Origin: Cyanidioschyzon merolae
Lineage: Eukaryota
Reading direction: 5' to 3' (one strand)
Assembly: GCA_000091205.1 (NCBI GenBank)
Contig: AP006489.2
DNA: 64,000 bases
Shown: positions 3,345 through 31,440 of the stretch, piece by piece
Position numbering within the stretch: position 1 is the stretch's first letter
Layout of the letters: each line of letters starts with the position of its first letter
The notes under the pieces: model-generated
The model's input: the letters and a program-made list of their open reading frames with translations, nothing else
The model's database searches: none
Told to the model about the DNA's origin: nothing
Translations under genes and position numbers: made by a program

Positions 3345-5180
3345 TCATTCTCGGCTTCGCTCTGCTCCGACCGCTGATTGTGGAGCCACATCTAACAGCT
3401 CGCACTGAATAAGGTCATGGTTCTGCAGTTGCAGGCTGGCCGGTGTGTCCCAGGCGAACACTTCACGACAGTGTGGATGGCGAGTAGCACCTGCCAGCAC
3501 CGGCGGTGAGCGATGGAGGTAACGAGCATCCCAGCGACGGTAGCGAGCCGCTGTCTGTTCGGGATCAAGGCCAAGTTCGGTCGATAAAAATCTTCTGAAC
3601 ATACGCTGGAGAGGTCGATTACTCCAGATACGATAGCTCTTATGCACGTCGCCGCAGAACATCCGAATCACCAGTGGTGAGCCTCGTTCGGTCTGTTCGC
3701 CTGCCGTGTTTTGCCGCGCAGCGGATTCACTGGTCAGCATCGACGTAGGAAGCGTCGGCAACCCCGGCAAGTACAATGCAGGCACTGCCGCAAGCTTTCC
3801 ATCTTCCATCCCTGGACCCGGCATGCCAGATTCATGACGATGATTCGATGGGACGCATTCCGCAGAGCCGCGAGGCTCCAGCTCCGTGATCGGAGGCAAG
3901 CGCTGAACGTTCGCGCGCTTCAGCACCTCGTTCGGTAGACTCAGCAAGCTCTCATCGTCGATATGAAGCGCGTGGCACATGAGTGTGAAACACTTCACGC
4001 AAGCACTTGAAACGTAAATCTGTGAGCTCGGCGTAATCGTGGCGTGGAATTGCAAGCAGTTCGTCCAGCTCTGGGTCTCACGCAGCAGATGATCCGGCAA
4101 GTTCACGTCTCGCAGTCGCTCCCGAAGCTCTTCAGCACCGTACCGGGATAGTGCGACATGCAGAGCCGGCAGCAGCGAGCGGGTCGCTCGATCGCCACAG
4201 GCGCACTCGGCTCGCTCGAGTTGTCGGACAGATCGCGGCGAGGATGCAAGGCTCTCTGCGGTTTGGTATCCCGCACCTGGTGCTTTGCATCTGAGCGCGT
4301 CCATGCAATCAGAGATATCGTAATGTTGAAGACGCTTTGATAGAGCGTAAGTATCTGGGTGCGAAGCTAACGCTTCGGGTGCCGACTTGGATGCTACCAG
4401 CGGGTATTCCGTTCGAGGCGTTTGGGAGGTTCCGTTCGGAAGGATCACAGATGAGGAACGGTACTTGTTGAGCTGCTGGAGTCTCTCGGATTTCGATACC
4501 AGCAACGGTTCCCTCATCGAAGGATTCTCTAGCTCCGGTACTTGTATTCCAGCAGCGCCCTCCCTCTCTGACCCCGCCAGTCGTTCAGCAGCACTGAGGA
4601 TGGACTCAGCCGCTACGGAAGGTGGCGTCACCGGCTCCAAACGAAGGTCTTCCGGGGTCGGAAGTGCTCCACGGCCCAGCGAGAGCCGGAGCAATCGCCA
4701 ATGACGATGCCTTAACGCCGAAAATAGAACCGGATCACAGTAGCTGCACACACCAACTGTGCGAAGCTGGGAAATTATTTCCAAGCGTTGTACCTCTGCT
4801 GGATGCAGCCATTTGTTCCTTCCGACTTCAAGCAATCGTCGACACGCCCGACAAACCGCACTCGTTGGTATGGGTGGCCAACGCAGGAGCGACCTCGGGT
4901 AGGCGCTCTCGTTCGCAGCCTCCGTCCACTCTGCCCGCCACGAGCAGCCAACGCACTGTCGCTCCACGTCAACCAGCGCATAGGCTACCTGCGCAGGCGA
5001 TAAAGCGGCTCCTGTGAGCCCGCTCTCTGAGCTCGTAGGCGGCGTAAGTTCAGCGCTCTCGTCGCGTGCGCGTCCCGGGTTCGCCTCGGGTCGCCGACCG
5101 GTTCGCTTCCCTGTCGCTGCAACGATGCGCTCTTGCGCAGCGCTGCAGTCCAGGGACATAGGCGGGCGTTCCAACCGCAC
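3345..5180 (-). CDS. Hypothetical 611-aa protein of no recognisable family, with several Cys pairs in the N-terminal region.
   Basis: A long uninterrupted ORF in GC-rich DNA; the opposite strand carries only short ORFs. N-terminal CVGC...CRAC...CSYC pairs are visible, and no family motif was recognised by eye. Confidence 0.4.
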   Translation of the reverse strand: MRLERPPMSLDCSAAQERIVAATGKRTGRRPEANPGRARDESAELTPPTSSESGLTGAALSPAQVAYALVDVERQCVGCSWRAEWTEAANESAYPRSLLRWPPIPTSAVCRACRRLLEVGRNKWLHPAEVQRLEIISQLRTVGVCSYCDPVLFSALRHRHWRLLRLSLGRGALPTPEDLRLEPVTPPSVAAESILSAAERLAGSEREGAAGIQVPELENPSMREPLLVSKSERLQQLNKYRSSSVILPNGTSQTPRTEYPLVASKSAPEALASHPDTYALSKRLQHYDISDCMDALRCKAPGAGYQTAESLASSPRSVRQLERAECACGDRATRSLLPALHVALSRYGAEELRERLRDVNLPDHLLRETQSWTNCLQFHATITPSSQIYVSSACVKCFTLMCHALHIDDESLLSLPNEVLKRANVQRLPPITELEPRGSAECVPSNHRHESGMPGPGMEDGKLAAVPALYLPGLPTLPTSMLTSESAARQNTAGEQTERGSPLVIRMFCGDVHKSYRIWSNRPLQRMFRRFLSTELGLDPEQTAARYRRWDARYLHRSPPVLAGATRHPHCREVFAWDTPASLQLQNHDLIQCELLDVAPQSAVGAERSRE

Positions 5181-5636
5181 GAGGCACGGAGCTTCAACGA
5201 AAGAAACTGCTCAATAACGGAAACGTACGATGATTGCACCACGGGTGACGAGATGAGCGTTGCCGCGAACACTCATTGGAGGAAAAAACGCTAGTCGATG
5301 CGCCAGCGACAGCGATCGGGAAGATACTGGACATTTAAGGACATTATGTACTGGGGCTGCTGCTGCGCGATCTGCTGCGCAATGAACGGCGAGGTTGGAC
5401 CACGTAATGCGCAGCTGCGGCAACAGCCGAGGTACCGCGACGGTGATGGGGACGATACTGGACATTTTAGATCATCACGAACAGGGGCTTTTGCTTTGCG
5501 ATCTGGTGCGGTACACGACTCGACGCGACACGAACCTGGTTCACAACCTACGCAGTCGCTGCCGCTAATCGAAGCGACGTGAGTGCAACATGTCGTACCA
5601 GAACTTCCACGAACCTTAGTAGACACCGGTGTATCC

Positions 5637-7235
5637 TTATGACTGACATATTCCGGAATCAGCTTCCGTAGATTCGCTTGAATAGACGCGAAACTTCAAA
5701 CCAAGTTCGCTCGCCCGCCGTCGCAAGCACCGCTCAAACCTTGACGGTGAGAGACCAAACACCCGGGACACATGCTCCGCAAACGACTGTTCCGGTGGGC
5801 ATGACGCTCTCTGACGCATTTCTGATAGTCCTAGGCCCTGGGCTGTGATCCGCCAGGGACAGCTGCCCCAGAGCGCCGTGGTGAGCCGTTGTCGATCAAC
5901 CGCTTTGAGGACTGCACGCACGCGCGGCTGCATACGCGTCGCTGGCGGGAGTCGCCGCATGCAGAGCACAATCTCACGCCAAACCTTGTCATCGTGCTGA
6001 TTAAGATGCGGCAAGGAGTCCGCAAACCAGCCATCAGAGACGCTTTGCTGAACAGATGCTATATCGTCGGCGACCTCGCCTGTCGGTGCTGGGGCATGAA
6101 TCCCCGTCGGTACGTTCTCGGCAAGCTCTATCAGACCTGCATCCACGTGTAGCGCAGTCGCTAGAACCGTATCAAGCGCGGCTTCAAGTTCCGTTCGCGG
6201 AGACCAGTCCCGTACCTGACGCTGTATGCACGCTTCGGTAGCCGCACCGGTTGTCGCCGATGACTGTGGGGAGCCCTCCGAGCAGCGTGCCGCCCAACGA
6301 TCGCGGAGCCAGCGCACGAGCGCTTCGGGTTGCTCAATCGGGATGTCTATTGCCAGACGACGTTCAGGTGCAGACCCGCTGCGAATATCTTCCGGAGCAA
6401 TATCCCAACTGACCAAGGTACGCTCGTCGCCGAGCTTCGCTACAAGTTGATGGGCTCTCGCCACCAGCCTGGGTCGATGCGTTCGATACTCATGGTCTTT
6501 GCAATGAATGTACGGCAGGAGCAGCTCACGCAGACGGCTCATCAGGCCTCGTTGCAACTGATCCAGAAAACACAATGAATGATAGGCGTTCAGGCTGGGA
6601 TCAGACGTTTCCGCTCTCGCCTCGACAATGCCCAGGAAGACCGCAGCCGTGAGGGTGCTCGCACCAATCCGAAGTTTCACCGCTCCAGAGCCGTTCGCAA
6701 ACGCACGTGTCACGTACTGGTGATGTCGGGCGAAACGACTCGTGAGAAGTGCATGGATCCAGTGACTGACATAGCGGAGCGCTACGGACCCTGCGGTCTG
6801 TCCTACAAGGTAGGCGATGGCCTCACCGATAGCACCAAATACGATGCTGAGGTTCATCAGCTCCGTGGTGTCAGGGCTCTGCAGGTCCGCAGCAATCGCT
6901 ACACCGAGTCGCCGTCGATCCCAGAGCCGAGCGCGTCGACGCGGGCTCGCCAGCTCCGGCGCTTCCTTTCGCTGTTTTCGTTGGGCGACTCGTGCCCTGT
7001 CAATCAGACTCTGACGGGTAAAATGAACACCTGAGTCGAAGACGTCGATGCCGGTTGTTTCGTAGCTTTGTTGAACGGCATTGCAAACAGCACAAACAGG
7101 ACGACCCTCGTCGTTCCAACGGAACCGACGAGCACCACACGACCCACACGAATAAATCATTCCAGAAGGCGGAAAGAGACCCCGCAGACGAGACACCCGC
7201 CGCAAGTGCAAAGCGCTCCGGCTCGAGGAACGCAC
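5637..7235 (-). CDS. RNA polymerase I core factor subunit, RRN7/TAF1B-like, with an N-terminal zinc ribbon (TFIIB-related).
   Basis: The N-terminus IYSCGSCGARRFRWNDEGRPVCAVCNAVQQSYETTGIDVFDSG has C-x2-C-x14-C-x2-C spacing followed by ..E.TG.D..., resembling the TAF1B/Rrn7 zinc ribbon. The rest of the 532 aa was not matched further. Confidence 0.35.
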   Translation of the reverse strand: MRSSSRSALHLRRVSRLRGLFPPSGMIYSCGSCGARRFRWNDEGRPVCAVCNAVQQSYETTGIDVFDSGVHFTRQSLIDRARVAQRKQRKEAPELASPRRRARLWDRRRLGVAIAADLQSPDTTELMNLSIVFGAIGEAIAYLVGQTAGSVALRYVSHWIHALLTSRFARHHQYVTRAFANGSGAVKLRIGASTLTAAVFLGIVEARAETSDPSLNAYHSLCFLDQLQRGLMSRLRELLLPYIHCKDHEYRTHRPRLVARAHQLVAKLGDERTLVSWDIAPEDIRSGSAPERRLAIDIPIEQPEALVRWLRDRWAARCSEGSPQSSATTGAATEACIQRQVRDWSPRTELEAALDTVLATALHVDAGLIELAENVPTGIHAPAPTGEVADDIASVQQSVSDGWFADSLPHLNQHDDKVWREIVLCMRRLPPATRMQPRVRAVLKAVDRQRLTTALWGSCPWRITAQGLGLSEMRQRASCPPEQSFAEHVSRVFGLSPSRFERCLRRRASELGLKFRVYSSESTEADSGICQS

Positions 7236-10621: not shown

Positions 10622-13600
10622 TTATCGCTGCGCTGTGCTTCCATCGTCGCTGACAGCCCGGTTGGAAGGTACGGTTTCCAGGTTCCCAGTGTCGGTGTCA
10701 CGCTGAGGATCGGGTTCTGTTTCGCGCAACAGAAAACGCACAAACTCGCGACCGAGCGATACGGCGTTCGAACGTGGCCATACGCGTCCGAGGGCTTGCG
10801 AACGTTCCGCCTCCGTACATTGGAGCATTCGCAGGAGCAGGTCCAGCGCTTCACGACGCTGGTTTGCTTTCTCGCTCAGCAGAAACACCAGCAGCAGCTG
10901 GCGGAGAAAAGGTCTGTCAACGGGTTCGTCAGCCGCTGTGCTTTCAATAACCTGATCGACATCCAAAAGCTCGGGAACAAGGGGCTCTTGCTGCTGCTGC
11001 TGCTGCTGCTGCGTATCTACGCTCCCGTCTCCCTGTTCGCCCAAAGCGAGGCGTTTTCCGCTTTCGGCATTGAAATAGACCGGGTGCTCGCTGGAGCTAT
11101 CCCCGAGGACAGGATCAATCAAAGGCCGGTATCGTTGCCTCAGCATCAGCATCTTCCACCAGTTCCGTTCCTGGGAGAGACGTGCAACTCGAGTCTGAGC
11201 CTCCTCGAGTGTCGCTCGGCATTCGGCCAATGTGTCGGTCAGCTGCGCGTTCTCCGCTCGGGCAGCCACGAGCTCTGCCTCTGTTTGTTCGAGGCGCGCA
11301 CGCAATGCAGACAACTCCGTATCTTTTTCCTGCAAAGCCAACTCGCTCCGCAGTAAACGACGCTCTATTTCGCTGAGCTGCGTGCGGTGCTGTTCTTGAT
11401 TGCGTGCCAGGGCGGCCTCGTGAGACTGCTGCATCGCCGTGAGCGCCGTCGTAAGTCGCCGTTCCCGTTCTTCAAACTCAAGCAGACGCTTCTCCAAGGA
11501 TGCCATGGACCGCTGCAGGTCCACCATCTTGGTGGACGCAGATGTCTCCGCACGGCGGCTCGCCTCCTGCTCCTCCTTGGCGATGCGCAACTGTTCGAGT
11601 GCTTGTTCGAGCGCCTCCTCCAGTGACTCTGTATTGGATTCCTGTTCTAAGCAGTGTTCACGAAGCTTCTCTACTTCAGTTTGTAGGAGGATGTACTCGG
11701 CGTGGAGTGCCTCATACCGCACAGCCCAGTGCTCAGCCTCTTTTTGAGCAGCTGCGTAACGCGCTGCGATACTTGCAATTTCGTCTTGATGACCGATAAC
11801 GCGCTCGCTTTCGTGTCCAGCACTCGGGCTAGTGCCGACATCCGAGCCCTGTACTCGCTCACTGGTGTGTGTTGCGGCCTCGACGCTTTCCTCGCGGGAC
11901 AGATGCTGTTCGGAGGCACCCGCTGGAGGTGATATCGCCCGATCGTCGGATTGTGCTGCAGTGGAGGCTGCTTCGAGACGCGGCCGCTGCGTTTCGGGAG
12001 CACTGCGCAGGTGCTCGGCGCTTGTCTCTGCGACGTAGGCGGCAGTCCGAAAAGCCATCTCGCTCTCAAAAGTGAGTCTGCTAGAGCCAGGGACGGAATG
12101 CAGTGTTCCATCCGCTGCTCGCCGACGCTCGGTGATCCATGCTGTGGAATCTTCAGCTGCTGCTAAGCGATCACAACTGCTCCCGCCAGATGCAATGGAC
12201 GCAACACCAGAGACTGGACTTTGGACGCGGGCCGAAGGCGTCGTTGAGCCTTGCCCCGGTGGTGACGAGACTCCCGGCGACTGCGGCACCTGCTCCCGGG
12301 TCATTGTTGAGTCCTCCAAACGATCCGATCCGCTATCATTGCCAAAAAACGGGCCAGCAACCGGAATACTGCTCTCTGGAAGCAGATAGGACAATTCCTC
12401 ATCAGCGCTGGCGAGCGATCCAGCCTGTAGATCAACGGTGCGCGCGTTCGAGGACGTTGCTGCAGCTGGCGACTCAACAGCAACTGAGGCACTTCCGATG
12501 CCTGGAAGCCGCACAGCAGCCACTGCGGCTGACGCCCTGTCTATCGCTGGGTCTAGAGCTGCTGCCGCTGCCGTTGGCGGTGTCATCGACCGGGTTTCAG
12601 GAGCGCGCAGCGCCTCGGGTTCGCTGGGCGAAGCGCTCGACAGCATCCTTGCATCCCGCGGAGACGAGCTCCCTGCTACCCGGGTGGATCCTTCCGAATG
12701 ACCTGCAGCGGTTTCCGTCGACATCACGGATGCAGATTCTCCTATCGCTGCAGTAATGTCTCGCGATCCCTCCGTGTCAAGCTGGGCTTCTTGCGCTTCA
12801 GATGCTGCGGCCGCCTCAGGTACCGTCGATGGTAAGGTGCTTGGGGTCAGGAGCGGCTCCTTCGATACCGCTGCTTGCGCCTCATGAACAGCCAATGGCG
12901 AAGGAGTATGGATTAAGGGCGGCTCATCCAGCACCGCTCCTGGTGACACCGGCGGCGTAGCGCTCTTTCGTGTGCCGGCTCCGGCTGCTGCAATCTTTAT
13001 TGCCAATGCTTCTCCAGTTTCGGGGGCGCTAGGTTCAGGTGGATGCTGATCGGATCCGCCATGTGCCCGACTGGACTTTGCAGAGCGAATTGGATCCGCG
13101 TGAGTACCTGTATGGAATACTTGCTCGCTGTCCATCATGGTAATCGAGTCAGTTGTCGGCATGCTCGCCTGCAGGGTCTCATCATGGCGGGCCAGGTCTG
13201 GATCGCCCTTGGCGGTGGCATCCGATATCGGCCGGTTCGCAAGCTGAGCCTGCCTCCTTGCAATCGTATTGGTTTCAGTCTGTTGTGGGCTGACGCTTTT
13301 CACAGAAGAACCTCCTTGCTCGAATGTATGTGTAGTTTCCGATGAGACAGGTGGTGCTTTTGAATCGAAATAGAACACATTGCCAGGCGCTTGCCCCTGC
13401 ACAGTAGATAGATGTGCGTGAATCGCCGCTGAACCTTGCGCTCGCTGAGCTGCCTCTTTGCATTCGAGCGGCATAAACCTCTCCATATCCGAGACAGCAT
13501 GCTCATCAGCTGGTTTCAACTTGAGCTGCACATCGGGATGTTTGCCTGGAGCAGTGCGATAACCACTAGAGTGGTCGATAGCGGCCTGTGCGTCGCCCTC

Positions 13601-14362
13601 AGGGCCTCGACTTTGCCATGCGGTTTCATTGTAGGGCGCTTGCCAAGCATCATCCGGTGAGGCACGATGTGCTACCTGCCCAGCTACCACGGACGACTTC
13701 AATGCAGCTCGTGGGCTCACTTGCCGCTCACTCACAGGTGTACCTGATGCGCGCTTCGTGGCCTGCAAGTCACTGGGCGGTGCATCTGCCAGACTTGCTC
13801 CGGCTGTCGCAGCGTTCGGACTTGCGTGGTCGGCGACCAGCGGTGCCTCGTCAGCGCTGCTTTTCACTGCCGACGCGCCCAGAGGTCGAGCACCAAGGAC
13901 ACGACGTTTTGGTCGCCGCAACGTGGACCCTGCGCCTTCTGGTTCCGCACTTACGGCCTTTGGAAGCTGGACAAGAGCCGGTACGATCGAAGCAGCTTGA
14001 CTCGAACCGTTCTCGTCGTCCGTGGTCGTAGCTGGCGATCGGTGCTCCCGCGGATACGTCTCTGTTTGCAGTTCCACTGGCCTTATGGGGTTCTTCGCTG
14101 GCTTGTTGGATCGAGTGAGGGCGTCACCCGCTCGAAGCGGTAGTACTACGCTACTCTGCAGAGAAGTTGCTTGCTTCATTGCTTTCGACACGGAAGCTTC
14201 CTCCGGGCTTTCCGTGTCATCCTCGTCTGCGACCTCGAGAGCTGCACGCGCATCCTCTAGTAACTCGCGAGCGGCTTCTGCGACCTTCTCGGCTCGTTTA
14301 CGTGCCTCAATGGCTCTGTTAAAAGCTTCCTGGCGGAGCGCTTGCCACATGAACAAGTGCAA
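10622..14362 (-). CDS. Golgin-like coiled-coil protein with a C-terminal GRIP domain, a long N-terminal disordered region and an internal polyQ tract.
   Basis: The central region is heptad-rich with E/L/R/Q (LQTEVEKLREHCLEQESNTESLEEALEQALEQLRIAKEEQ...). The C-terminal FLRQLLLVFLLSEKANQRREALDLLLRMLQCTEAERSQAL matches the GRIP consensus (golgin-97 YLRKVLFEYMMGRETKTMAKVITTVLKFPDDQTQKIL), with Phe at the usually conserved Tyr. The (GCT)8 tract at about 10988-11011 encodes Q8. Confidence 0.5.
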   Translation of the reverse strand: MHLFMWQALRQEAFNRAIEARKRAEKVAEAARELLEDARAALEVADEDDTESPEEASVSKAMKQATSLQSSVVLPLRAGDALTRSNKPAKNPIRPVELQTETYPREHRSPATTTDDENGSSQAASIVPALVQLPKAVSAEPEGAGSTLRRPKRRVLGARPLGASAVKSSADEAPLVADHASPNAATAGASLADAPPSDLQATKRASGTPVSERQVSPRAALKSSVVAGQVAHRASPDDAWQAPYNETAWQSRGPEGDAQAAIDHSSGYRTAPGKHPDVQLKLKPADEHAVSDMERFMPLECKEAAQRAQGSAAIHAHLSTVQGQAPGNVFYFDSKAPPVSSETTHTFEQGGSSVKSVSPQQTETNTIARRQAQLANRPISDATAKGDPDLARHDETLQASMPTTDSITMMDSEQVFHTGTHADPIRSAKSSRAHGGSDQHPPEPSAPETGEALAIKIAAAGAGTRKSATPPVSPGAVLDEPPLIHTPSPLAVHEAQAAVSKEPLLTPSTLPSTVPEAAAASEAQEAQLDTEGSRDITAAIGESASVMSTETAAGHSEGSTRVAGSSSPRDARMLSSASPSEPEALRAPETRSMTPPTAAAAALDPAIDRASAAVAAVRLPGIGSASVAVESPAAATSSNARTVDLQAGSLASADEELSYLLPESSIPVAGPFFGNDSGSDRLEDSTMTREQVPQSPGVSSPPGQGSTTPSARVQSPVSGVASIASGGSSCDRLAAAEDSTAWITERRRAADGTLHSVPGSSRLTFESEMAFRTAAYVAETSAEHLRSAPETQRPRLEAASTAAQSDDRAISPPAGASEQHLSREESVEAATHTSERVQGSDVGTSPSAGHESERVIGHQDEIASIAARYAAAQKEAEHWAVRYEALHAEYILLQTEVEKLREHCLEQESNTESLEEALEQALEQLRIAKEEQEASRRAETSASTKMVDLQRSMASLEKRLLEFEERERRLTTALTAMQQSHEAALARNQEQHRTQLSEIERRLLRSELALQEKDTELSALRARLEQTEAELVAARAENAQLTDTLAECRATLEEAQTRVARLSQERNWWKMLMLRQRYRPLIDPVLGDSSSEHPVYFNAESGKRLALGEQGDGSVDTQQQQQQQQEPLVPELLDVDQVIESTAADEPVDRPFLRQLLLVFLLSEKANQRREALDLLLRMLQCTEAERSQALGRVWPRSNAVSLGREFVRFLLRETEPDPQRDTDTGNLETVPSNRAVSDDGSTAQR

Positions 14363-17584: not shown

Positions 17585-19291
17585 CTACGGCTTCTGAGCT
17601 GGATGCACGTCCGAAACGTGTTCCGCCTCAGGGCGTGTGCCACGATCAAGAGCACTTGTCGTTTCCACCGGTTCAATCGAGTCGCGCATGACGCTCTGCA
17701 GTGCGCCAGTATTCATGGGTTCGCCTATCGCTACGATCGGCGACATAGCCTTGTCGTCTGGCGGCTGCTCCGAGACACCAAGATCGTCCTTTTGGAGACT
17801 CAAGCGATTCAGCGCACGCAATTCTGCATCAGATATTCCAATGGTCGTCACTTTCACGGGGAGTGGCCAAAGCAACAGAAACGACAAGACTGAGATACCC
17901 AGCACGACAAAGGAGATTAGGCGAACCGCATCCGGATCGCTCATGTGGCTAAACACAAGACTGAGGGTGACGCCGCCAGTATTCCCGCCCGCACCAACGA
18001 TACCACCCACGGACCCGGTCGCGATCGGATCCACGAAGGGGACGATCGCGAAAACTGCGCCGCATGACGCCTGCGTGAAAAGGGAAAAAAGAATCAAAGT
18101 GGGTATTGCTGCACCGATGGTCGTCATCCGGGAGAAAACCAAGCAGAATACACCCTCGAGAACCAGGTTCGCGAACAACCAGAGCACACGTCCGCGCATG
18201 CTGTAGCGACGCGCAATCAGATCCGAGCCAATACCGCCAACAGCCCGCGCAAACAGGTTCATTAGTCCAAAGAGACCTGCCGCAACACCGGCTATCGATT
18301 GATCAAGGTTGAAGACTTTGTTGAAGTAAGTAGCCAGCACGTTATCCATGGTCAGCTCAACACCGAAAGAAGACGCATACAGGCAGAACAGCACATACGT
18401 TCGCGGATTTCTTGCTGCTCGCGCAAAAGCCTCGAGTGCTGAAATCGGGCGCAAGTTCCCGATTCGATAGAGATTCTTGTAGTCACCGTCTGGGCAGTCG
18501 TCGGAGAAGAAGAACAAGACCACGGCCCAGATCAGGGCCATGGTACCAGGGATCACCATCACGACTCGCCAGGCTTTTTCCTCGTCCAAACCGAAGACCT
18601 TCATCAAGTTATAGAACTGCGGCATAAGCGCATTGGTGGCGCCACCGCCCGCATTGCCCCATCCCGCTGCAACCGCATTCGCTGTTCCAATGATATTCCT
18701 CGAGAACATCAGCGCACACCAGTACTCAGTTACAACGAAGGTTGCACCAAGACCGCCGATGAAAAAACGTGCTGTGGCGAATGATGCAAAATTATACACC
18801 GTTCCGAACAGATACACCGGGATTGAGAACACCGCCAGCAGGAGCGCCTGAACACGTCGTGGCCCGAAGCGGTCCACCAGGGCACCAGTCACCATGCGCA
18901 TGAACACTGTACCTGAAAGCGCAATCGCATTCGAGTGCGCTTTGTTCGCTTTGGTCAAGTCCAATGCTTTGTCCGAGGAAATACTCGGTAAAAGCGCTGG
19001 TACCGCAAACCAACCGAAAAACGCGATGAAAAAGGATGACCATGCAAAGAAAAAGGCCCGCATATGCGGACGGTCGAAGCGCCACGGCTCCAGGCGCCTT
19101 GCCCGGTGTAGGGCATCGACTGGCAAACGGTACGAATACAGCGGAGCCGCCACCGACTCCACTTCAAGGTCTTTCCATTCTTTACTGTTCGGACGCGAAG
19201 GCCCCAGAGATGAGTCGAGGGTGTCGTCTCGGAGGAGGATCTCTTTCTCGTCCAACGCTGTAGGGACAGGTTGGCCAGCTCCCTCCGCCAT
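17585..19291 (-). CDS. NRT2: High-affinity nitrate/nitrite transporter, NNP family (NRT2), an MFS transporter.
   Basis: The NNP nitrate signature AAGWGNAGGG is present in GGATFVVTEYWCALMFSRNIIGTANAVAAGWGNAGGGATNALMPQ. About 12 hydrophobic segments with Gly-rich MFS motifs are visible, and the gene is adjacent and divergent to nitrate reductase. Confidence 0.88.
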   Translation of the reverse strand: MAEGAGQPVPTALDEKEILLRDDTLDSSLGPSRPNSKEWKDLEVESVAAPLYSYRLPVDALHRARRLEPWRFDRPHMRAFFFAWSSFFIAFFGWFAVPALLPSISSDKALDLTKANKAHSNAIALSGTVFMRMVTGALVDRFGPRRVQALLLAVFSIPVYLFGTVYNFASFATARFFIGGLGATFVVTEYWCALMFSRNIIGTANAVAAGWGNAGGGATNALMPQFYNLMKVFGLDEEKAWRVVMVIPGTMALIWAVVLFFFSDDCPDGDYKNLYRIGNLRPISALEAFARAARNPRTYVLFCLYASSFGVELTMDNVLATYFNKVFNLDQSIAGVAAGLFGLMNLFARAVGGIGSDLIARRYSMRGRVLWLFANLVLEGVFCLVFSRMTTIGAAIPTLILFSLFTQASCGAVFAIVPFVDPIATGSVGGIVGAGGNTGGVTLSLVFSHMSDPDAVRLISFVVLGISVLSFLLLWPLPVKVTTIGISDAELRALNRLSLQKDDLGVSEQPPDDKAMSPIVAIGEPMNTGALQSVMRDSIEPVETTSALDRGTRPEAEHVSDVHPAQKP

Positions 19292-20163
19292 GCCGGAGTG
19301 GTCAGGACAGCGGTTTTGTGCTCAACACTTAAGTACGTTATGTATGTCGGGGAAACGCACCAAGCGTCAACTCCCCTTCCGCTGACAAGTTGTGGCAGAC
19401 ACAAAGTGCCTCTCAACTGAATGCCAAACACGAATACAACGTGTGGCGCACGCATGCACCATCATGCGTGCATCGCCGTGCGCACGCATGCGATAGGTCG
19501 ATGGCGCGCGCGCGCGCGCCGCTGCAACCGAATCGTTGACCGTTGAACGAATACGGAGGCGTACGCCAACGCCAACAACGCATCACGCCCACACGTGCTG
19601 GACACACGATGCCGATCCCGAAATACGACGCCGCTACGCTCCTGGACGTGGCGCCAACGAACGGCTCAACAGATTCGTGACAGGAGCAACAAGAACAACA
19701 ACAGTGACATCGCGAACGTGTTTCCTAGTTCGCGTAAAAGGCAAACGTGCAGCTGTACACCAGCGTTAGAAACTGGTTGGTGAGTTTTGAGGGGCACTTT
19801 TGAGTTGCAAGCGTTTGGAGGGTTTTTTAGAATTGTGGAGTTTGCTAGTTGTTGGTTGTAGTTGCCGTTCACGGAGCTAGGGTGCGAACACGACTTGAGG
19901 GCGTGGGGTGCTCGCCAGCACTCCGTTGTCACCGTGAAAATTCTGCAAGACTGCTCGGACGTGTTTTATTAGCTCTGAGTTCTATCGTCTGTGCAATTGT
20001 GATTTTTTTTGTTAGTGAACAACGAAGAAGAAGGTGGAAAACGAGTCGAGCAATCTAGCCGAAACGTGTGACCTCGCTCTGGGACGCGAATCTTGTTCGC
20101 TGAAACGCCCTATCGTCGAAAGACTGGAACCAAGAAGAATTCAAACGAAGCTGAAGGCCGCGA
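19292..20163. promoter_or_regulatory. Divergent intergenic region between NRT2 and nitrate reductase, presumed to be a bidirectional promoter.
   Basis: 872 bp lie between two divergently oriented start codons. The region contains a (GC)9 tract at about 19497-19515 and T-rich tracts. No specific binding site could be established by eye. Confidence 0.35.
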
Positions 20164-23109
20164 TTGTATGCTCGCTCGTGTCGACTCTTCAGTCAGTACC
20201 CCAATTGTGGATACCTTGCAAGGTCTCGGGACTGTCTATTCACGTACCACACGATGCACACTGTACCGGAGGGCTGCAGCTCCCCGCGTGCCGATGAGCA
20301 GACTAAGCTGATGCGCCAACAACCGCATGAGAACGGCACCAAACCGGCGATATTGTCGGAAGCGAGCGCGCTGCTCGCTGCAATGAGGCACTGGGAGGAG
20401 CAGCTCGCGCAGCGCCAGCTCCCCATCGACAAGCGAGATCAAAACACACCCGACGACTGGGTGCCTCGTCATCAGGCGATGGTGCGTCTCACGGGGAGGC
20501 ACCCGTTCAATGCCGAGCCGCCACTATGTTTGCTAGATCAGGATCTCACGAGCCAGGAACTTCACTATGTACGGAACCATGGAGCAGTCCCGCATCTGAC
20601 CCTGGGCACGCACCGCATTCATATCAGTGGCCTGGTAGAACGTCCGGGCGCGTTTTCTGTAGAGGAACTGCTCGCGCTGGGGGAGCTCGTCACGATCCCT
20701 GTGACCCTCGTGTGCGCTGGCAACCGGCGCAAGGAACTCAATCAAATACGCCAAAGCATTGGTTTCCACTGGGGTGCAGGCGGCGCCTCCACGTCCTTCT
20801 GGACAGGGGTACGTTTGGCGGACGTCCTCCGTCACTGCCAAGTCTGTGAATCTCCGAAAGCCCGTTATGTATGCTTCACTGGTGCTGATGAGCCAGCGAA
20901 AGGTCCGTACGGTACTAGTATACCGCTCGCGATGGCGCTGGATCCGCACGCTGACGTACTCCTAGCGGTTGCTCAGAATGGAGCGCCTCTACATCCGGAC
21001 CATGGGTATCCTGTTCGACTTTTGGTGCCAGGATGGATTGGCGGGCGCATGGTCAAGTGGCTGTCCCATGTTGAGGTTTCAGACCGCGAATCGCAGAACC
21101 ATTACCATTTTTTTGATAATCGCATCATGCCCCCACACGTGGATAAGGAGCGCGCCGACTCGGAGAAATGGTGGTATCGCCCCGAGTACCTTTTCAACGA
21201 GCTGAATATCAACTCGGCGGTAGTGCGCCCGCTGCACGATGAATTGCTTCCGCTGCACCATGCGAGCGAGCAGCATTCCTATCGTATCGAAGGCTACGCC
21301 TACAGCGGCGGTGGCAGACCCGTCACGCGTGTGGAGATCACTTTCGATGACGGTCAGCTTTGGAATCTGTGCGAGCTGCGGCATCCTTTTGAGCCGAACG
21401 CAGCCGGACGGCAATGGGCCTGGAGTCGCTTCAGCTTCAATGCATCACTCGTGCATTTGCTGTGTTGCACCGAGTTTGCAGTCAGGGCCTGGGATAGCAG
21501 CAACAATACACAGCCGCATCGCTGGACCTGGAACGTCATGGGTATGGGCAATAATGCGTGGTACCGCGTGCGCGTCTCACCGGTACCCGATCCCGGCACC
21601 GGACGTATTTCGCTGCGTTTCGAGCATCCTACAGTGCCGGGGCCGACGGCTGGCGGCTGGATGGGTTCCAGTACTGTCCCAGGAGCGTCGCACTCGGGGC
21701 AGCAACCAGCTGTGCCTGCACCAGCAACAGAACATGCACTGCGAGACGCCCCGGAGGCGAAGCGCGACATCGCCCAAATGGCTGAGCGGGTGCAGATGCC
21801 ACCTGTGCCGAACGCAGTTGGCAGCACGGTGCATGGCTCCAATGTGTACCAACAAATGATGCGCAAAAAGACCGCGGAAAAGCTCCAGCAGGCGCAACAA
21901 CGCCTCTATACAAGCGCCCAAGTTGAGCGGCACCAGAGTGAGACCGATCTTTGGATCGTAGTGCGCGGTCGTGTCTACGACGTGACGCGCTATCTGAACG
22001 AGCACCCCGGTGGCAAGGCGGCGATCATGATGAATGCCGGACAGGATTGTACCGAAGACTTTGAGGCCATTCACTCCGAGAAAGCCTGGAAGTTGCTGGA
22101 TGACTTTTACATCGGAGAATTGGCTCCTGCTGGGTCATCCGCAGATGCGTCGCTCTCGTCGTCGCCTCATCTGGCGTATACGGACTCGTCGACGGATCTG
22201 CTGCGGGAGCAGTTCTCCAGAGACGCAGTCATTCACGCCGATGCCGCTGACGGCGCCTGTACCGAGAGTATCGATGGATGCCGCCCGGCATTAGACCCAA
22301 AGAAATGGAAGGACTTTGTGCTCGCCAGCAAGTCGTATATCACGAAGAACACGGTGCGACTGCGCTTTGCTCTACCTGATGTCAACCAAGTGCTGGGTCT
22401 GCCTACAGGGAATCATTTGCTCATTCGGGCGCGAATTGAGAACAAGAATGTCGCACGGGCGTACACACCGACGAGTCTCGGCCACGAAGCCGGCTTCTTC
22501 GAGCTTGTGATCAAAGTGTACCGCGCGGGCGCGCATCCTTCATACCCGTCTGGCGGGAAAATGTCGCAGTATCTGGAACTGCTTCGTATTGGAGACACGG
22601 TGCAGGTCAAGGGCCCACTTGGGCACTTTAGCTACGTCGGACTTGGCGCGTACATGTTACATGGACGAGCTGGAAGGGCGCGGCGGTTCGCTTTTCTTTG
22701 TGCAGGCAGTGGCATCACGCCAGCGTTCCAGGTGATGAAAGCAATCCAGGTTGAGCTTCAAGAGCATGCGAAACAGTCATCTACACCGTTTCTGGATGCT
22801 ATATACCTGGTCTACGCGAATCGAAACGAGGACGAGATTCTGCTCTTCCAGGAACTCGAAGCATGGCGCCAGTGCGATGCGCGCTTTCAGTTCTGCTACG
22901 TACTGAGTCAACCGTCGGAAGCCATTTCCAAAACGTTTCCGGAGGCTGTCGTTGGCCACGTGAATCAGGAGCTGCTGGCAGCCCGTCTACCGGGGCCACG
23001 TAGTGATCTTATTATCGGCATTTGTGGTCCAGCGGGATTTCAGGATGATGCGTGCATTCCGGCACTGAAAGCTCTGGGATATACTTCGGAACAGTTTTTT
23101 ACGTTCTAA
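20164..23109 (+). CDS. Assimilatory nitrate reductase [NAD(P)H] with Moco, dimerisation, cytochrome b5 and FAD/NAD domains. The true start may instead be the in-frame ATG at about 20251 (MHTVPEG...).
   Basis: The Moco Cys motif VTLVCAGNRRKELNQIRQSIGFHWGAGGASTSFWTGVRL is present. The b5 haem domain reads YLNEHPGGKAAIMMNAGQDCTEDFEAIHSEKAWKLL. The FAD motif RAYTPTS and the NAD motif CAGSGITP are present, and the canonical domain order is preserved in 981 aa. Confidence 0.95.
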   Translation: MYARSCRLFSQYPNCGYLARSRDCLFTYHTMHTVPEGCSSPRADEQTKLMRQQPHENGTKPAILSEASALLAAMRHWEEQLAQRQLPIDKRDQNTPDDWVPRHQAMVRLTGRHPFNAEPPLCLLDQDLTSQELHYVRNHGAVPHLTLGTHRIHISGLVERPGAFSVEELLALGELVTIPVTLVCAGNRRKELNQIRQSIGFHWGAGGASTSFWTGVRLADVLRHCQVCESPKARYVCFTGADEPAKGPYGTSIPLAMALDPHADVLLAVAQNGAPLHPDHGYPVRLLVPGWIGGRMVKWLSHVEVSDRESQNHYHFFDNRIMPPHVDKERADSEKWWYRPEYLFNELNINSAVVRPLHDELLPLHHASEQHSYRIEGYAYSGGGRPVTRVEITFDDGQLWNLCELRHPFEPNAAGRQWAWSRFSFNASLVHLLCCTEFAVRAWDSSNNTQPHRWTWNVMGMGNNAWYRVRVSPVPDPGTGRISLRFEHPTVPGPTAGGWMGSSTVPGASHSGQQPAVPAPATEHALRDAPEAKRDIAQMAERVQMPPVPNAVGSTVHGSNVYQQMMRKKTAEKLQQAQQRLYTSAQVERHQSETDLWIVVRGRVYDVTRYLNEHPGGKAAIMMNAGQDCTEDFEAIHSEKAWKLLDDFYIGELAPAGSSADASLSSSPHLAYTDSSTDLLREQFSRDAVIHADAADGACTESIDGCRPALDPKKWKDFVLASKSYITKNTVRLRFALPDVNQVLGLPTGNHLLIRARIENKNVARAYTPTSLGHEAGFFELVIKVYRAGAHPSYPSGGKMSQYLELLRIGDTVQVKGPLGHFSYVGLGAYMLHGRAGRARRFAFLCAGSGITPAFQVMKAIQVELQEHAKQSSTPFLDAIYLVYANRNEDEILLFQELEAWRQCDARFQFCYVLSQPSEAISKTFPEAVVGHVNQELLAARLPGPRSDLIIGICGPAGFQDDACIPALKALGYTSEQFFTF

Positions 23110-24342
23110 AGCCGTTTGTTTGCGATTTTTTTCTCCCAGTGATAAGCAGAAGACTTCGATGCAGTCTCGTCGCAGTGCTTGTCATACAAGCCAATACCGC
23201 GCTGCTCGCACCAGACGTGCACCCGCAACCTTCCTCTGAGTCTACGCAGTTCGCACGCTTTACCCCAAGGTGGAAAGCGCGTCAGCCAGCGCACCGGATT
23301 CGTGCATGCTGGCCATGCGATGCCATACGCAACGCGCCCGAGCCAATGAACAGCCGACGACCGCACTCGCTGCCCAGGCACGCGTTCCTCCGTGCCCCTG
23401 GACCGCTCAGCAGCACTGGCGCTCCAGGCGGGTCCCAGAGCTTCGAACGAGCACCTACGCCGCGACCGATGCCATACGAATTGTGCAAGAGGCGTGCACC
23501 TACCAAAGTGAATCTGTATTTCCTGGAAAGCGCACGACGGCCCCATGATGGGCCATACGCTTGAAGACCGCACAAAAAATTCGGAATCTCTGCGACGTCC
23601 TGATCTCTCTCTGACGCGAAGCGCCGGCATCGCACACCGCGGAACCCGGCAAATCGTGTGGCGGCGGTAGCGCCCGGCAGCGCATCGTCAAACCGGCGAT
23701 GATCAGCATATGGCATGCCAATCAGCGACAATAATGGATCATTTAGTTCCAAAAATTACAAACTTACCATCGCTCGGTAGATCGCCGAGTCGCATGTACA
23801 TTGCGGACGATGCGCAGCCGCCGTGCGTGCAGCGACCACCTGAACGGATGGCGCAGCTGATCGACTCGCGGTGACCCGCAGCGTTCGCCGTCTCAGATTC
23901 GGAACGGAAACGGATCGGATACCGATGGACTCGGGCGTCTCTATTGCCCAAAGCTTGCCTGCGCTGCGACCATATAGCGTCGCAGCAAGAAGCGAAAACT
24001 GAGCCTCATGGCACCGACCAAGTGCTGTGTCTTTCGCTGCTGCGCGCGAGCTGTGTTTGGGCGTAGCACTGCCTAGTGTCGGCGATTTGGCTATTCCCTG
24101 GTGCTAGCGCGCTGACACAAATGAGGTGCTCTGAATTTTTACGGTCACTGAAAAAGACGGCAGATAGCCCCTTGGTCGGCGCTTCGGTTTTAACAAGACT
24201 GCCAGGAGCCCGCGGCAACTCTGACATCAGCCTCTGCTATCGGTTCCCGCCTCATAGGCTGCACCCTTGAGGAATTCGTTCCAGCACGCACCCTGATCGC
24301 GTGCTTACCCGAGAATGCTGTTCATGGATTCGCCAGCAGCAG

Positions 24343-26403
24343 CTACGATACGGGCGCTGCCGGCACCCCATCCCAATAACGTTGCGCATACGCCTCGAGT
24401 TGCGCCTTCCCAACTCGATCGCAAAAGTCTCCAAAGGACTCGTCCGGCTCGCGTGCGCTTTTCCAGAATACAAACACCGGCTCCAGGACGCGCTCCACCT
24501 GATCGTCCGTCACCCGATCGATATACGGCCACGCGAGGCGCGTCTGCATCGGGCTCCCGCCCAGCCACACCTGATACGTACAATTCGGACCTGATCCGAC
24601 GAATCCCAACTCGGCCATGTACGGACGCGTGCACCCGTTCGGGCATCCAGTCATGCGCATCACGAACGATGCGTGCGGCGAGATGCCGACTTTGGACAGC
24701 AGCTCGCGCACGCGCTGCACGTAGCGCGGCATGACACGCTCCGCCTCCGTGATCGCCGGCGGACACAGCGGCAACGCTGGACACGCCATCGCGTCACGCA
24801 TCAGCGGATCCAGTGCGGATGCTGCCGTCTCGACGCCGAACGACGCCAGCAGCGTCTCGACGTCAGGGCGCGCTGTCGCTGGCACCTGCGTGATGAGAAG
24901 GTTCTGCTGCGGCGTACATACCAGGGGAAAGTTGAAGCGATCCGTTAGGGCACGGAGTGCTTTCTTCAGCTCGTCTTTGATCCGCCCGTTCTGTACGTAG
25001 AGGCCGAAAAACCAGCGTCCGTCTCCTTGCTCGCGCCAACCCAGATAATCCTGGAAAGTCCACGGCGGCATGGAGCGTATCGACTCTAGCGCACTGCCAC
25101 CACCCACCATATACGACTTGACGAGTTCGCGGAATCGATCGATGCCCAGCCGATGCACCAGGTACTTCATCCGGGCGTTCGTGCGAACTGCACGATTGCC
25201 GTGGTCCCGCTGGGCAGCCAAGATCGCTTTGAGTGTGTCGTACAGCGCCGCTGCCGGTACGTACCCCAGCGGATCGGCAGCACGCGCGAAGGTCTCCTCT
25301 TTGTTATGAGTGCGACCCATGCCGCCGCCGACGAGAATATTGGCACCTTCCAGTTGACCCTGCGCATCACAAAAAACGACGATTCCAATGTCGTGTGTGT
25401 AGATGTCGATAGAATTATCCCCGGGAACAGTGACACCAACTTTGAACTTGCGCGGAAGGTACAGCTTTCCGTAAAGCGGCTCGACGGAATCCTGCAGAAC
25501 CTGACCACGCCCGTTATCCTCCGTCATGAGTCGTCGAACTTCGTCCATGTCCAGCTCCTTCTTCCAGTACTCGATGCTGGCGGCAAGCTCCCCATCGAGC
25601 CACAGATCCGCAAACGCGTGCGACTGAATCGCGAACAGCTCTGCCACCATTCTGGCAACGTGTCGTGCCTGCGCATACGCGGCATCGACGAAGGGCGCCG
25701 GCGGCGCGATGACGTTGCGCGAGCAGTCGCCGCTCGCACCATACAGCCCGCCGCCCGCTCGCACGATGCTCTGGACGACGGTTTTCAGATTGGATTTATG
25801 GATGCCGTGGATTTGGAACGAAGAGCGCGTCGTGAGCCGCAGCGTCTTGTTCCCATAGGTTTCACTGATGTCGTCGAGTGTCGTATACAGCGAAGGCGGA
25901 CACTCGCCGGCGGGCATTTTCAGACGGAGCATGAACTGGTATTTCTTGAGCTCCCCGCGAACACGTTGATCTCGGTTATCTTGGAGATATCCGCCATGGA
26001 ACTTGATAAGTCCGATGCAGTCATCGGAGATGAAGATCTGGTCGTTGCCCAGTTCTTCCATTAATGGGTGACGAAGATAGTCCGAGTTCAGTTTCGGCAA
26101 CTCGTATGGATTTAGCTTGAGCTGGTCGAGTGTCCCGTCACGGATTGCTTCCTCGATATGCTTCCGCGTTGTGATCGGCACGACCGTATGCTTCTTCCGA
26201 GACTGTTCAGATGAGAGGTTTGCTATGATGTTCCGCCGGGCGGTTCGGCACTGCCGTTGGCGTCGTAGTCGGTCTCGCAACAGTACCTCGGTCAACGGAT
26301 AAACGCCCGGTGCTGCGGAACCGGTGGGTGCCAAACCTCTGCGAGCGCCGACTAGAGGTTTTGCGTACGTGACGAACATCATCAGAGTATACCGCACGCG
26401 CAA
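24343..26403 (-). CDS. Siroheme/[4Fe-4S] sulfite/nitrite reductase hemoprotein, ferredoxin type and CysI/SiR-like. By position it is the presumptive nitrite reductase of the cluster.
   Basis: [77 protein letters not shown] closely matches the siroheme-cluster region of E. coli CysI (CPLAMAEAERFLP...[33 protein letters not shown]) and plant SiR (PLCPLAITEAERGIP...[24 protein letters not shown]). There is no FAD/NAD(P)H domain in the 686 aa. The N-terminus is Arg-rich and presequence-like. Confidence 0.8.
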   Translation of the reverse strand: [686 protein letters not shown]

Positions 26404-27229
26404 CTATGTTGAAGGCGCTGCTCTGGCACGAGCTCGAATGGCCAGCAGAGCTTAAACGAAGTAAGGCAAAAGCCATCCTGAATTCATGCGTTCCTATCGA
26501 TCCCACGGGTGCGTGTTATCCAACGGATCACGGATCCGTTGAGCATCGCAGACCTGTCCAGTTAAGTCTATAGTTGGCTCGTTTTGAATCTCTTCGCAAA
26601 GGCGCGCAGCGTGCCCCACGCGCACACGTGCCGAAGATTCGTGCGATGCCGATCCGGCCTCATAGCGGACACGTGTCGCAAGGAAATGCCGTGCACGCAG
26701 CGTCCTTCCCATGGCCGTTATGTACAGTATGATTCATGTTAATTGTTTTAAGTGGACAAGTCTTGACACATGCCAGTGTTCTCCAACCGTGCGCTTCCTA
26801 TCAGCGCGCGGTGAAGCATCGCTCGATTCACCTACTTCCAAGTTCCATAACCCTTACCTCTTCTTGGATATACTAGCCGCTTCATACGTTCTATCGTTCG
26901 CCGCGTGCCTGCCCTGCTGCATCTGGAATAGCGATTATAGTGCCGGTGCGGTCGTAGCACGGTTACGGAACGGCGTTGCAGTTCCACAGAGGGCGTCGGC
27001 GCGAGAGTATACATGAATATCCACACACAGACGCCTCTCAGCTATTCTTGACCGGCCGACTTCTATCGGTTTCAGTTTCTGCTAGAACACTTCCAGCTTG
27101 AGAGGCTGCACCACAAAACTCGATCGCGACAGCTCCTCGGATGTCGTCTTCAACACTGCATATCGTCGGATATTGATAGCGGCGTCAAAGTCTCGGTTCA
27201 CGAATTCCGTCTGTTCATTGGCTCAGGTG

Positions 27230-29031: not shown

Positions 29032-31440
29032 TCAAACAATAGGAGTCACTGTCGCGGCATTCGCCGTCTCTTTTGAAACAGCTGCCAAGTCGAGTGCCCG
29101 GTCTAGAGCCCGAACCAGGTCTGCTGCCCGATGGAGCGGCGTCTGCGCTGGAGCTACCAGCGCGTATACCGTGGTGCCCAGCGGTCGCAGGTAGATGCCA
29201 TGCTGCTGGCGAGCAATGCTCAGCACTCGCGTCTGACGGGCTGCAAGAAGCCGCTCGTCCGCCTGTTCAGCTGAGGTCAGCGGTGTGAGTTGCACAGCCA
29301 ACACGCTTCCAATCGCAGACACCGCACCAACACCAGGTTTGGTTGAGAGCGCTCTCACGGGTGCCAGCAACGCACCGTCGAACACGCGCGTCTCCGCGGA
29401 GGTTAGCCGCTCATAGATGGAGAGGGCTGCGTTCGCCGCTGCGCATCCCGCCGGATACGCAGAGTACGAGTGTCCGTGGAGGAGAGCGTCGGCTCGCTTT
29501 TCCCCCAAAAATGCAGTAAACACCTCCTCAGACGACAGGGTAACAGCCAACGGGAGCGCACCGCCGGTGAGCAACTTGCCATATGCGGCAATGTCGGGCT
29601 CACGATCGAGAATGCTGGCACCAGTGAGGGCGCCAAGCCGCCAGAAGGCCGTGAAAACCTCATCGAAAACGACCGGGATTGCCCGCTGCCGACAAGCATC
29701 GATCAGCGCTTGTTGATATACGACGTCGATGATACGCATGCCACCGGCGCCCTGTACCACTGGCTCGAGAACCAAAGCGCCCAGTGGCATCGATTCGTGT
29801 CGCGCTAGTTCCTCTGCAATGCTGCGGTGGTACTCGCGATATCGCTCGTGACGTCGTCGCTGGGCAGCAGCGTCCAAGCCTTGCGGTGCATCTGGCTGCC
29901 AGTCACCGTTCCAGATCGCACAGTATGGCGGTTTGAGGAAAAGGCCCCGGCCTCGATACCAGGGCGTTTGAAGCTGGTTAAAGGTGGACGACGGTGAGCA
30001 GTCCATGGCGCCCAGGGTGTCCCCGTGGTAGCTCCCCTCGAGGCCGACAATGCCGACATCCGAGGCGCGTGACAGGTCGAAGAGCCCTCGTTTCTGAGCG
30101 AGGCGAAATGCCATCTTCAGACCGATCTCCATCGCAGTACTCCCGTTATCCGAGAAGAAAACACGAGACGCCCAGCCATTCCCGACGCTGTTTAGGAGGC
30201 GCTTGCTGAGCAGCCAAGCTGGCTCGTGAACGCACTCGGGGAACATAACGTGGCCGTAGCGTCCCAGCGCATTCCCTATCGATCGGTTTAGCGTCGGGTG
30301 ACCGTGTCCGACTGACTGCGTCCACCAGGAGCCGCAGCCATCGAACCAACGCTCTTGAGTGAGCTCACTCGATGACGTTCTTTTCTGTGGACTCATTCCA
30401 GAGACGTCGCGCTTGACCGATTTGATAATCGTATAATCGTCGCCGTAAGCCGAGTCAATGAGCGTCGTCTGTGCTCGCTCCTCGGATGCAGACGGCATTC
30501 GCCGTGCCTGGTGTTGCGTGAAAGGCCACCACAGCACTTGGTCGCTCTCGCGAAGCATATCTTGCCAGCGTATCGCGCGACGACACCACCAGTGTCGGAG
30601 ATGCTCTATGAATCGTTGAGCAGTTTCGTCGACGGACACCAAGCCTTGTGCTGGCTGTGCTAGAGATGCCTGCGCATGCGCATCAAAGACTCGCAAATAA
30701 GGCTCCACAATGGGCGTCTCTTCTGGGTCCAGCTGAGCGCGGATAGCGGCAGCATTGCGATCAGCGCTCTCGAGTCCGGGGCCCATGCCGAATACAATGG
30801 CCGGGACATCATAACCACGGCTTCGCAAAGCTTCATATGCGGCGAGCGTCGTCGATATACCTCCTAGTCGTGCATCGCCAACAAGGACGCCAGGTAGCCG
30901 TACCGCGCGATAAAAGTCCGCCTGGAGCGTGCCGCTGGCGCTCACCGGAGACAACACACCACCCGCTGTTTCAACCATGAACAGCGAAAGCCCTGCGTTT
31001 TTTAGTGCATTCTCGATATGCTCCAACACCGTGGACGAGTCTAGTTCGGGAGATGCCAGACCTCCCGCGGGTCGCTGGAGCGACGCATGTGAGAACGGCT
31101 CCCCGGCAGTAGCAGCTGCTGCTGCCTCCTGTGGGGAACGCGCTAGCCTCCACGCGTACAGCGTCCGGCATGAAAAAGCGTGCTCTCTGGACACATATTC
31201 CAGAGCATTTTCTGGTTCGTTGATACGGGTATCCGTTCCCAGGGCTTGTCTGAATACGAATCGAGCGTCGTGATCGGAAGGAAACCCCGTCTGCAGCGGC
31301 TTGAGGTAAAGCAGTGCTCCCCTAGCTCGGTCGCTGTCTCGCAAGTGAGCTCGGGCGAGCGCTGCACAAACCAACGTCTTTCCAACGTTGGTATTCGCGC
31401 CCCATACCTGGAAAGCGAGCCCGTAAAAGTTTCGTTGCAT
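29032..31440 (-). CDS. BIO3-BIO1: Bifunctional biotin-biosynthesis enzyme: dethiobiotin synthetase (BioD) N-terminal domain fused to 7,8-diaminopelargonic acid aminotransferase (BioA), with BIO3-BIO1 architecture.
   Basis: The N-terminal P-loop reads AFQVWGANTNVGKTLVCAALARA, like the BioD GTDTEVGKT. The C-terminal class-III aminotransferase stretch HDEVFTAFWRLGALTGASILDREPDIAAYGKLLTGGALPLAVTLSSEEVF aligns with E. coli BioA [48 protein letters not shown], including the PLP lysine. Confidence 0.9.
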   Translation of the reverse strand: MQRNFYGLAFQVWGANTNVGKTLVCAALARAHLRDSDRARGALLYLKPLQTGFPSDHDARFVFRQALGTDTRINEPENALEYVSREHAFSCRTLYAWRLARSPQEAAAAATAGEPFSHASLQRPAGGLASPELDSSTVLEHIENALKNAGLSLFMVETAGGVLSPVSASGTLQADFYRAVRLPGVLVGDARLGGISTTLAAYEALRSRGYDVPAIVFGMGPGLESADRNAAAIRAQLDPEETPIVEPYLRVFDAHAQASLAQPAQGLVSVDETAQRFIEHLRHWWCRRAIRWQDMLRESDQVLWWPFTQHQARRMPSASEERAQTTLIDSAYGDDYTIIKSVKRDVSGMSPQKRTSSSELTQERWFDGCGSWWTQSVGHGHPTLNRSIGNALGRYGHVMFPECVHEPAWLLSKRLLNSVGNGWASRVFFSDNGSTAMEIGLKMAFRLAQKRGLFDLSRASDVGIVGLEGSYHGDTLGAMDCSPSSTFNQLQTPWYRGRGLFLKPPYCAIWNGDWQPDAPQGLDAAAQRRRHERYREYHRSIAEELARHESMPLGALVLEPVVQGAGGMRIIDVVYQQALIDACRQRAIPVVFDEVFTAFWRLGALTGASILDREPDIAAYGKLLTGGALPLAVTLSSEEVFTAFLGEKRADALLHGHSYSAYPAGCAAANAALSIYERLTSAETRVFDGALLAPVRALSTKPGVGAVSAIGSVLAVQLTPLTSAEQADERLLAARQTRVLSIARQQHGIYLRPLGTTVYALVAPAQTPLHRAADLVRALDRALDLAAVSKETANAATVTPIV

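Follow-up and report, generated by a model that had tools for sequence, protein, structure and literature searches.

A sulfite reductase-family protein in the role of nitrite reductase at the nitrate-assimilation locus of Cyanidioschyzon merolae

Introduction

The closest described system to the locus studied here is CmSiRB (CMG021C, also termed NIR) of the red alga Cyanidioschyzon merolae 10D, which neighbours genes for nitrate reductase (NR) and a nitrate transporter (NRT). According to the passage on this alga in the review of Sanz-Luque et al. (2015, PMC4620153), which summarises Sekine 2009, C. merolae is devoid of a nitrite reductase (NiR) gene (NII1), and CmSiRB, one of its two annotated sulfite reductase (SiR) genes, "encodes really a nitrite reductase", with high NiR and very low SiR activity. 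The same passage places CmSiRB between the nitrate transporter and NR genes and describes its expression as high on nitrate and low on ammonium, that of the other gene, CmSiRA, being affected by neither. Fujiwara et al. (2015, PMC4549557) listed and used CMG021C as NIR; its 800-bp upstream region was silent in ammonium and strongly active in nitrate, and the mRNA was back to basal amounts within 1 h of ammonium addition. In that study, all three promoters (NRT, NR, and NIR) were inactive on ammonium and active on nitrate, and the addition of ammonium silenced them within 1 h. In 2020, it was reported that no typical NiR gene had been found in the complete C. merolae genome (PMC7076501), and a review of 2021 handles CMG021C as nitrite reductase.

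Related systems are the ferredoxin-dependent SiRs (Fd-SiRs) of plants and cyanobacteria, the NirA/NII nitrite reductases of plants, and the NirB/NiiA enzymes of fungal and oomycete NRT2-NR-NiR clusters. Here, we analyzed a stretch of 64,000 nucleotides from C. merolae contig AP006489.2 (assembly GCA_000091205.1), which we call the window, with the focus on one open reading frame (ORF) that was identified as CMG021C. An earlier note made from the letters of the window had described this ORF as SiR-like and as neither a canonical NirA nor a NirB. It offered two readings, an SiR-clade enzyme recruited as the nitrite reductase of the cluster or a genuine sulfite reductase co-located with nitrate genes. 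By implication the choice was left open, which was wrong: as far as the secondary accounts relate, an enzyme assay, expression on nitrate versus ammonium, and a genome search for NiR were reported in 2009-2010.

Results

Identity of the gene

The ORF was confirmed on the minus strand at 24343-26403 with a length of 686 aa as listed, and its translation holds both motifs quoted in the earlier note ([16 protein letters not shown]; [24 protein letters not shown]). The start at 26403 is a TTG and a product of mechanical ORF calling. The annotated and experimentally used start is the first ATG, at 26382, giving a 679-aa protein and a reading frame 21 nt shorter than 24343-26403. From this ATG, the window protein showed 100% identity over 679 aa to XP_005535840.1/BAM79554.1 of C. 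merolae 10D, which is named 'sulfite reductase, ferredoxin dependent' in GenBank and lies on a 584,452-bp record.

The identity was cross-checked using the primers that Fujiwara et al. (2015, PMC4549557) tabulate for NIR (CMG021C), NR (CMG019C), and NRT (CMG018C). Ten of the 12 published primers matched the window exactly at the predicted offsets and set the start codons of NIR, NR, and NRT at 26382, 20254, and 19291, respectively. For NIR, exact matches were obtained with NIR(-800)F (27157-27182), NIR(9)R (26374-26398), which sets the ATG at 26382, and the two primers for quantitative PCR, NIR(1911)F and NIR(2000)R. NR(-800)F (19452-19473) and NR(2631)F (22883-22904) were located at the expected sites with 2-3 edits relative to the genome. 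These edits are probably due to a typing error in the table or an error of text extraction and, given the exact matches of the other ten primers, not to a difference between strains. Since both the full protein identity and the primer matches agree, we concluded that the gene is C. merolae CMG021C (CmSiRB/NIR) and that the window contains the nitrate-assimilation locus. It is the same gene as the published one, with the same NRT and NR neighbours, and no difference was found.

CMG021C belongs to the SiR branch

Pfam analysis of the 686-aa ORF, which the earlier note had proposed as a check, identified only NIR_SIR and NIR_SIR_ferr (PF01077 and PF03460), each in two stretches. No FAD- or NAD(P)H-binding domain was found in the ORF by Pfam, in agreement with the note's statement that these domains of NirB are lacking. 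Among the NCBIfam models, the protein passed TIGR02042 ('sir', the ferredoxin-SiR equivalog) with 743.1 bits against a cut-off of 731.5, and failed NF007125 (ferredoxin-nitrite reductase; 122.9 bits against 594) and NF007126 (the NirA family model; 110.8 bits against 523). The top solved structure was the maize chloroplast Fd-SiR 5h8v, which aligned from end to end (E = 1.8e-174); E. coli CysI followed with an E-value of about 1e-94, and plant and mycobacterial NirA-type structures gave 1e-23 to 1e-27 over approximately 290 residues. The E. coli CysI and maize SiR motifs that the note had cited agreed with these structure alignments. In a protein search, the first match was a cluster of 99% identity that includes XP_005535840.1; Cyanidiococcus yangmingshanensis (84%) and Cyanidium caldarium (69%) came next, followed by other red algae. 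The remaining Fd-SiRs in the BLASTP list were mostly 52-57% identical to the window protein.

These sequence comparisons, together with the tree described below, place the CMG021C protein in the SiR branch and in neither NirA nor NirB, as the note had claimed. Membership in NirA was ruled out by a six-fold gap in bit score and by about 147 orders of magnitude in PDB E-values, and thus by score gaps between profiles and between structures, not by topology, as the tree contains no NirA sequences. Membership in NirB/NiiA was ruled out by Pfam, the siroheme domain being present without fused FAD/NAD(P)H oxidoreductase domains. An oomycete or fungal origin, prompted by the NirB-type clusters, was likewise ruled out, the best matches being Cyanidiales and other red algae.

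With plant and cyanobacterial Fd-SiRs (maize SiR 5h8v; TIGR02042), CmSiRB shares the domain architecture, four cysteine ligands, an R/R/K/K anion pocket, and full-length homology. Unlike these enzymes, it is described in the literature, in the secondary accounts cited above, as nitrite-preferring with very poor sulfite turnover, is nitrogen-regulated, and is clustered with NR and NRT. With NirA/NII (spinach 2akj, tobacco 3b0g; NF007125), it has in common the reaction, superfamily, cofactors, electron donor, and step after NR, but the kinship is only distant, and CmSiRB, which was recruited from the SiR branch, is analogous to it in function. It occupies the same third place in the gene cluster as the fungal and oomycete NirB/NiiA and, unlike these, is of the ferredoxin type and without FAD or NAD(P)H domains. 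On the published activities, CmSiRB belongs to the ferredoxin-SiR family by descent, not by function.

A Cyanidiales-specific pair of paralogues

CmSiRA (XP_005534858.1) is a second C. merolae SiR of 731 aa with 61% identity to the window protein; it lies on an 839,707-bp record, presumed to be chromosome 10. Cyanidium caldarium has two SiR copies as well. A tree was built by neighbour-joining (NJ), a simple method, from 557 well-aligned columns of 33 sequences, namely 32 Fd-SiRs plus E. coli CysI, which served as the root, and was bootstrapped 100 times. One clade, SiRB, had 100% bootstrap support and comprised the window protein, the copies linked to the cluster in Cyanidiococcus and Cyanidium, and two metagenomic sequences. 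Its sister was a Cyanidiales SiRA clade containing XP_005534858.1 (96% bootstrap). Both clades were nested among red-algal Fd-SiRs, with Galdieria phlegrea outside both.

CmSiRA and its Cyanidium orthologue are the sister paralogues of CmSiRB. Unlike CmSiRB, CmSiRA has the consensus residue at the sites private to SiRB (see below), and its expression is indifferent to the nitrogen source in the passage of the review cited above (PMC4620153).

NRT, NR, and SiRB are physically adjacent in the window and form a nitrate-assimilation cluster; the neighbours are those that the earlier note had named (Table 1). The domains of CMG019C found by Pfam, namely Mo-co binding, dimerisation, cytochrome b5, FAD, and NAD, are those of a five-domain eukaryotic nitrate reductase. 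CMG018C scored 282.9 bits with the NarK family model TIGR00886 of NCBIfam, and its search against PDB gave no match at 1e-5. The order SiRB-NR-NRT is conserved in Cyanidiococcus and Cyanidium with the same flanking BIO3-BIO1 and SET-domain genes. SiRA-type genes, in Cyanidium and in the genome carrying P0144, lie in a different conserved neighbourhood of unrelated genes, with no nitrate genes. The retention of the linkage over three genera argues for selection on the cluster. The tree and the conserved synteny point to a single event of duplication and recruitment that would predate the divergence of Cyanidioschyzon, Cyanidiococcus, and Cyanidium.

Some gene models in the related genomes look faulty. 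The SiRB models of Cyanidiococcus (557 aa; L001 10001-15344) and Cyanidium (558 aa; L002 10001-11677) are without the N-terminal extension, and the Cyanidium model ends before the C-terminus of the SiR model. In addition, the Cyanidiococcus NR is modelled as two separate products, of 556 and 162 aa, and a Mo-co binding domain was called in neither. All of these are probably annotation artefacts.

Active site, private substitutions, and N-terminus

In the alignment with E. coli CysI and maize SiR, the residues Cys534, Cys540, Cys580, and Cys584 corresponded to the cluster/siroheme cysteines Cys434, Cys440, Cys479, and Cys483 of E. coli CysI, all unchanged. Arg153, Arg222, Lys312, and Lys314 corresponded to the anion-binding residues R83, R153, K215, and K217 of the E. 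coli enzyme.

We then defined as private those sites at which the SiRB clade departs from a residue common to at least 93% of 119 other Fd-SiRs. Such changes were A122C/S, Q124G, and S131G within or close to the KFHG motif, S212G and C217S in the loop that runs up to Arg222 (the equivalent of E. coli R153), P252L/I, and L542P, two residues past the cluster cysteine Cys540. At the variable sites, the window protein itself has A122C and P252I. The consensus residues are kept in SiRA.

We infer that the SiRB-private substitutions near the active-site loop and the cluster motif may have caused the change in substrate preference. A more specific proposal is that one duplication took place in the ancestor shared by Cyanidium, Cyanidiococcus, and Cyanidioschyzon once Galdieria had branched off, with Q124G, S131G, S212G, C217S, P252L/I, and L542P as the determinants of the substrate switch. 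We regard this as a tentative proposal with somewhat poorer than even prospects. If it is true, a minimal recipe for turning an SiR into an NiR would leave the canonical pocket residues untouched, and the SiRB-private substitutions would be a small set of candidate specificity determinants.

The N-terminal 86 residues lie ahead of the part alignable to mature maize SiR and contain 17 Arg and Lys against 7 Asp and Glu. They probably constitute a plastid transit peptide, as judged from this composition and from their position outside the SiR homology.

Table 1 Coordinates of the nitrate-assimilation genes and of the elements of CMG021C in the window.
Feature	Position	Strand	Basis
CMG021C (CmSiRB/NIR), coding sequence of the 679-aa siroheme/[4Fe-4S] SiR-family reductase	24343..26382 (stop codon included)	-	Identity, primers, domains
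Four cluster/siroheme cysteines and SiRB-specific Pro542	24631..24783	-	Alignment to E. coli CysI and maize SiR
Four anion-binding residues and SiRB-private Gly212, Ser217, and Ile252	25441..25926	-	Alignment
N-terminal extension (aa 1-86), probable plastid transit peptide	26125..26382	-	Outside SiR homology, basic composition
NIR promoter region (-800 to -1), nitrate-active and ammonium-repressed	26383..27182	-	Primers; PMC4549557
Nitrate reductase CMG019C	20254..23109	+	Pfam; NR(9)R sets the ATG at 20254; NR(2700)R exact
Nitrate/nitrite transporter CMG018C (NRT), NarK/NNP-family member of the major facilitator superfamily	17585..19291	-	Pfam MFS_1; TIGR00886; NRT(9)R, NRT(1501)F, and NRT(1571)R exact

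Discussion

Taking these results with the published ones, we are confident that CMG021C is an SiR-derived, probably plastid-targeted, ferredoxin-dependent enzyme that acts as the nitrite reductase of C. merolae in the NRT-NR-SiRB cluster. The published work on CMG021C/CmSiRB, as far as the accounts cited above relate it, backs the first reading of the earlier note, and the activity and regulation described there contradict the second. The gene identity, the family, the conserved ligand and anion residues, the paralogue tree, and the synteny were obtained in the present analysis; the literature supplied the nitrite preference, the control by nitrogen, and the lack of a canonical NiR.

Several points weigh against this conclusion. 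Judged by sequence alone, CMG021C looks like a sulfite reductase and passes an SiR model of equivalog level. All four anion-binding residues are kept in the alignment with E. coli CysI and maize SiR, including the second lysine, the position of the anion pocket at which plant NiR has an asparagine. The functional evidence comes from secondary sources, and the absence of a second NiR from the genome as a whole comes from the literature. The original work on CmSiRB is that of Sekine et al. (2009, Biochem J 423:91) and Imamura et al. (2010, Plant Cell Physiol 51:707).

On such grounds, CMG021C could be a true sulfite reductase, the second of the alga, whose place next to the nitrate genes is incidental, with nitrite reduced by another enzyme: the curated Fd-SiR model TIGR02042 accepts it, every catalytic and ligand residue of SiR is retained, and GenBank names it as a sulfite reductase. 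However, the enzyme is described in the cited passage of the review as having high nitrite- and very low sulfite-reducing activity (PMC4620153), its gene is induced by nitrate and repressed by ammonium in the literature, and the complete genome was reported to have no NiR gene (PMC7076501). A separate paralogue, SiRA, is available for sulfite, and the linkage to NR and NRT has been kept in three genera. A second sulfite reductase is therefore very improbable. We give slightly less credence still to a dual-function enzyme with a material share in both nitrite and sulfite reduction in vivo, that is, to subfunctionalisation in place of a clean switch. SiRs generally have some nitrite-reducing activity, the unchanged residues of the anion pocket would suit such a role, and Sekine et al. 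(2009) reportedly found that sulfite binds tightly and inhibits nitrite reduction competitively, but the sulfite turnover reported in the review is very low, and the expression of CMG021C is described there as tracking the nitrogen source, which that of CmSiRA does not (PMC4620153).

Under the preferred reading, that of a recruited nitrite reductase, an assimilatory SiR gene would have been duplicated within the non-Galdieria Cyanidiales to give SiRB, which would have taken over the reduction of nitrite to ammonium, a six-electron step, in an alga without NirA or NirB. CmSiRA, the older paralogue on another chromosome, would have stayed a sulfite reductase. Nitrate would enter the cell via NRT and be reduced by cytosolic NR, and the resulting nitrite would be converted to ammonium in the plastid by CmSiRB with reduced ferredoxin at the coupled [4Fe-4S]-siroheme centre. 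According to the literature, NRT, NR, and SiRB are co-induced upon the switch from ammonium to nitrate and shut off by ammonium.

The observation made in the earlier note is correct but already known, and the window contains nothing that extends what has been published. The present analysis adds the Cyanidiales-specific paralogue clade, the conserved cluster, and the clade-private substitutions, which is a modest addition. The case is of interest as a textbook-style example of enzyme recruitment, in which a red alga with no canonical NiR, whether through loss or from the outset, re-purposed a duplicated SiR and kept it in the nitrate cluster. In C. merolae genetics, the CMG021C promoter is now in routine use as a means of induction and repression. 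The gene is also an annotation pitfall, since the equivalog model and the GenBank name give the wrong substrate and the gene context gives the right one.

Other features of the window

Pfam identified no nitrite-reductase domain in any other window ORF of at least 220 aa, and no tRNA genes or Rfam matches were found in the window. The divergent intergenic region between NRT (-) and NR (+), at 19292-20253, spans 962 bp. The '-800' promoter fragments of NRT and NR, defined by primers at 20073-20091 and approximately 19452-19473, overlap across almost all of it, and the region is probably a promoter that is regulated by nitrogen and works in both directions. NR and SiRB are convergent, and the 1.2-kb gap between their stop codons, at 23110-24342, contains only overlapping ORFs of 92-174 aa, and the two longest (170 and 174 aa) had no Pfam match. 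The locus numbers skip from CMG019C to CMG021C, and a small CMG020C may be annotated in this gap. In Cyanidium, the corresponding gap between NR and SiRB is only about 360 bp.

Adjoining SiRB, an 802-aa ORF at 29032-31440 (-) appeared to be a bifunctional fusion of the BIO3-BIO1 style, with a dethiobiotin-synthetase-like AAA_26 domain and a class-III aminotransferase domain. It looks ordinary and is in the syntenic position in Cyanidium and Cyanidiococcus. Three long ORFs on the minus strand in 3345-7235 and 10622-14362 (611, 532, and 1246 aa) gave no Pfam match; in Cyanidiococcus (L001), a 1212-aa product, likewise without a Pfam match, occupies the position corresponding to the 1246-aa ORF. 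Finally, a mechanical ORF of 338 aa at 54853-55869 (-) showed a Tim10/DDP zinc-finger domain only at residues 267-324, and the listed ORF probably far exceeds the true small-Tim gene in length.

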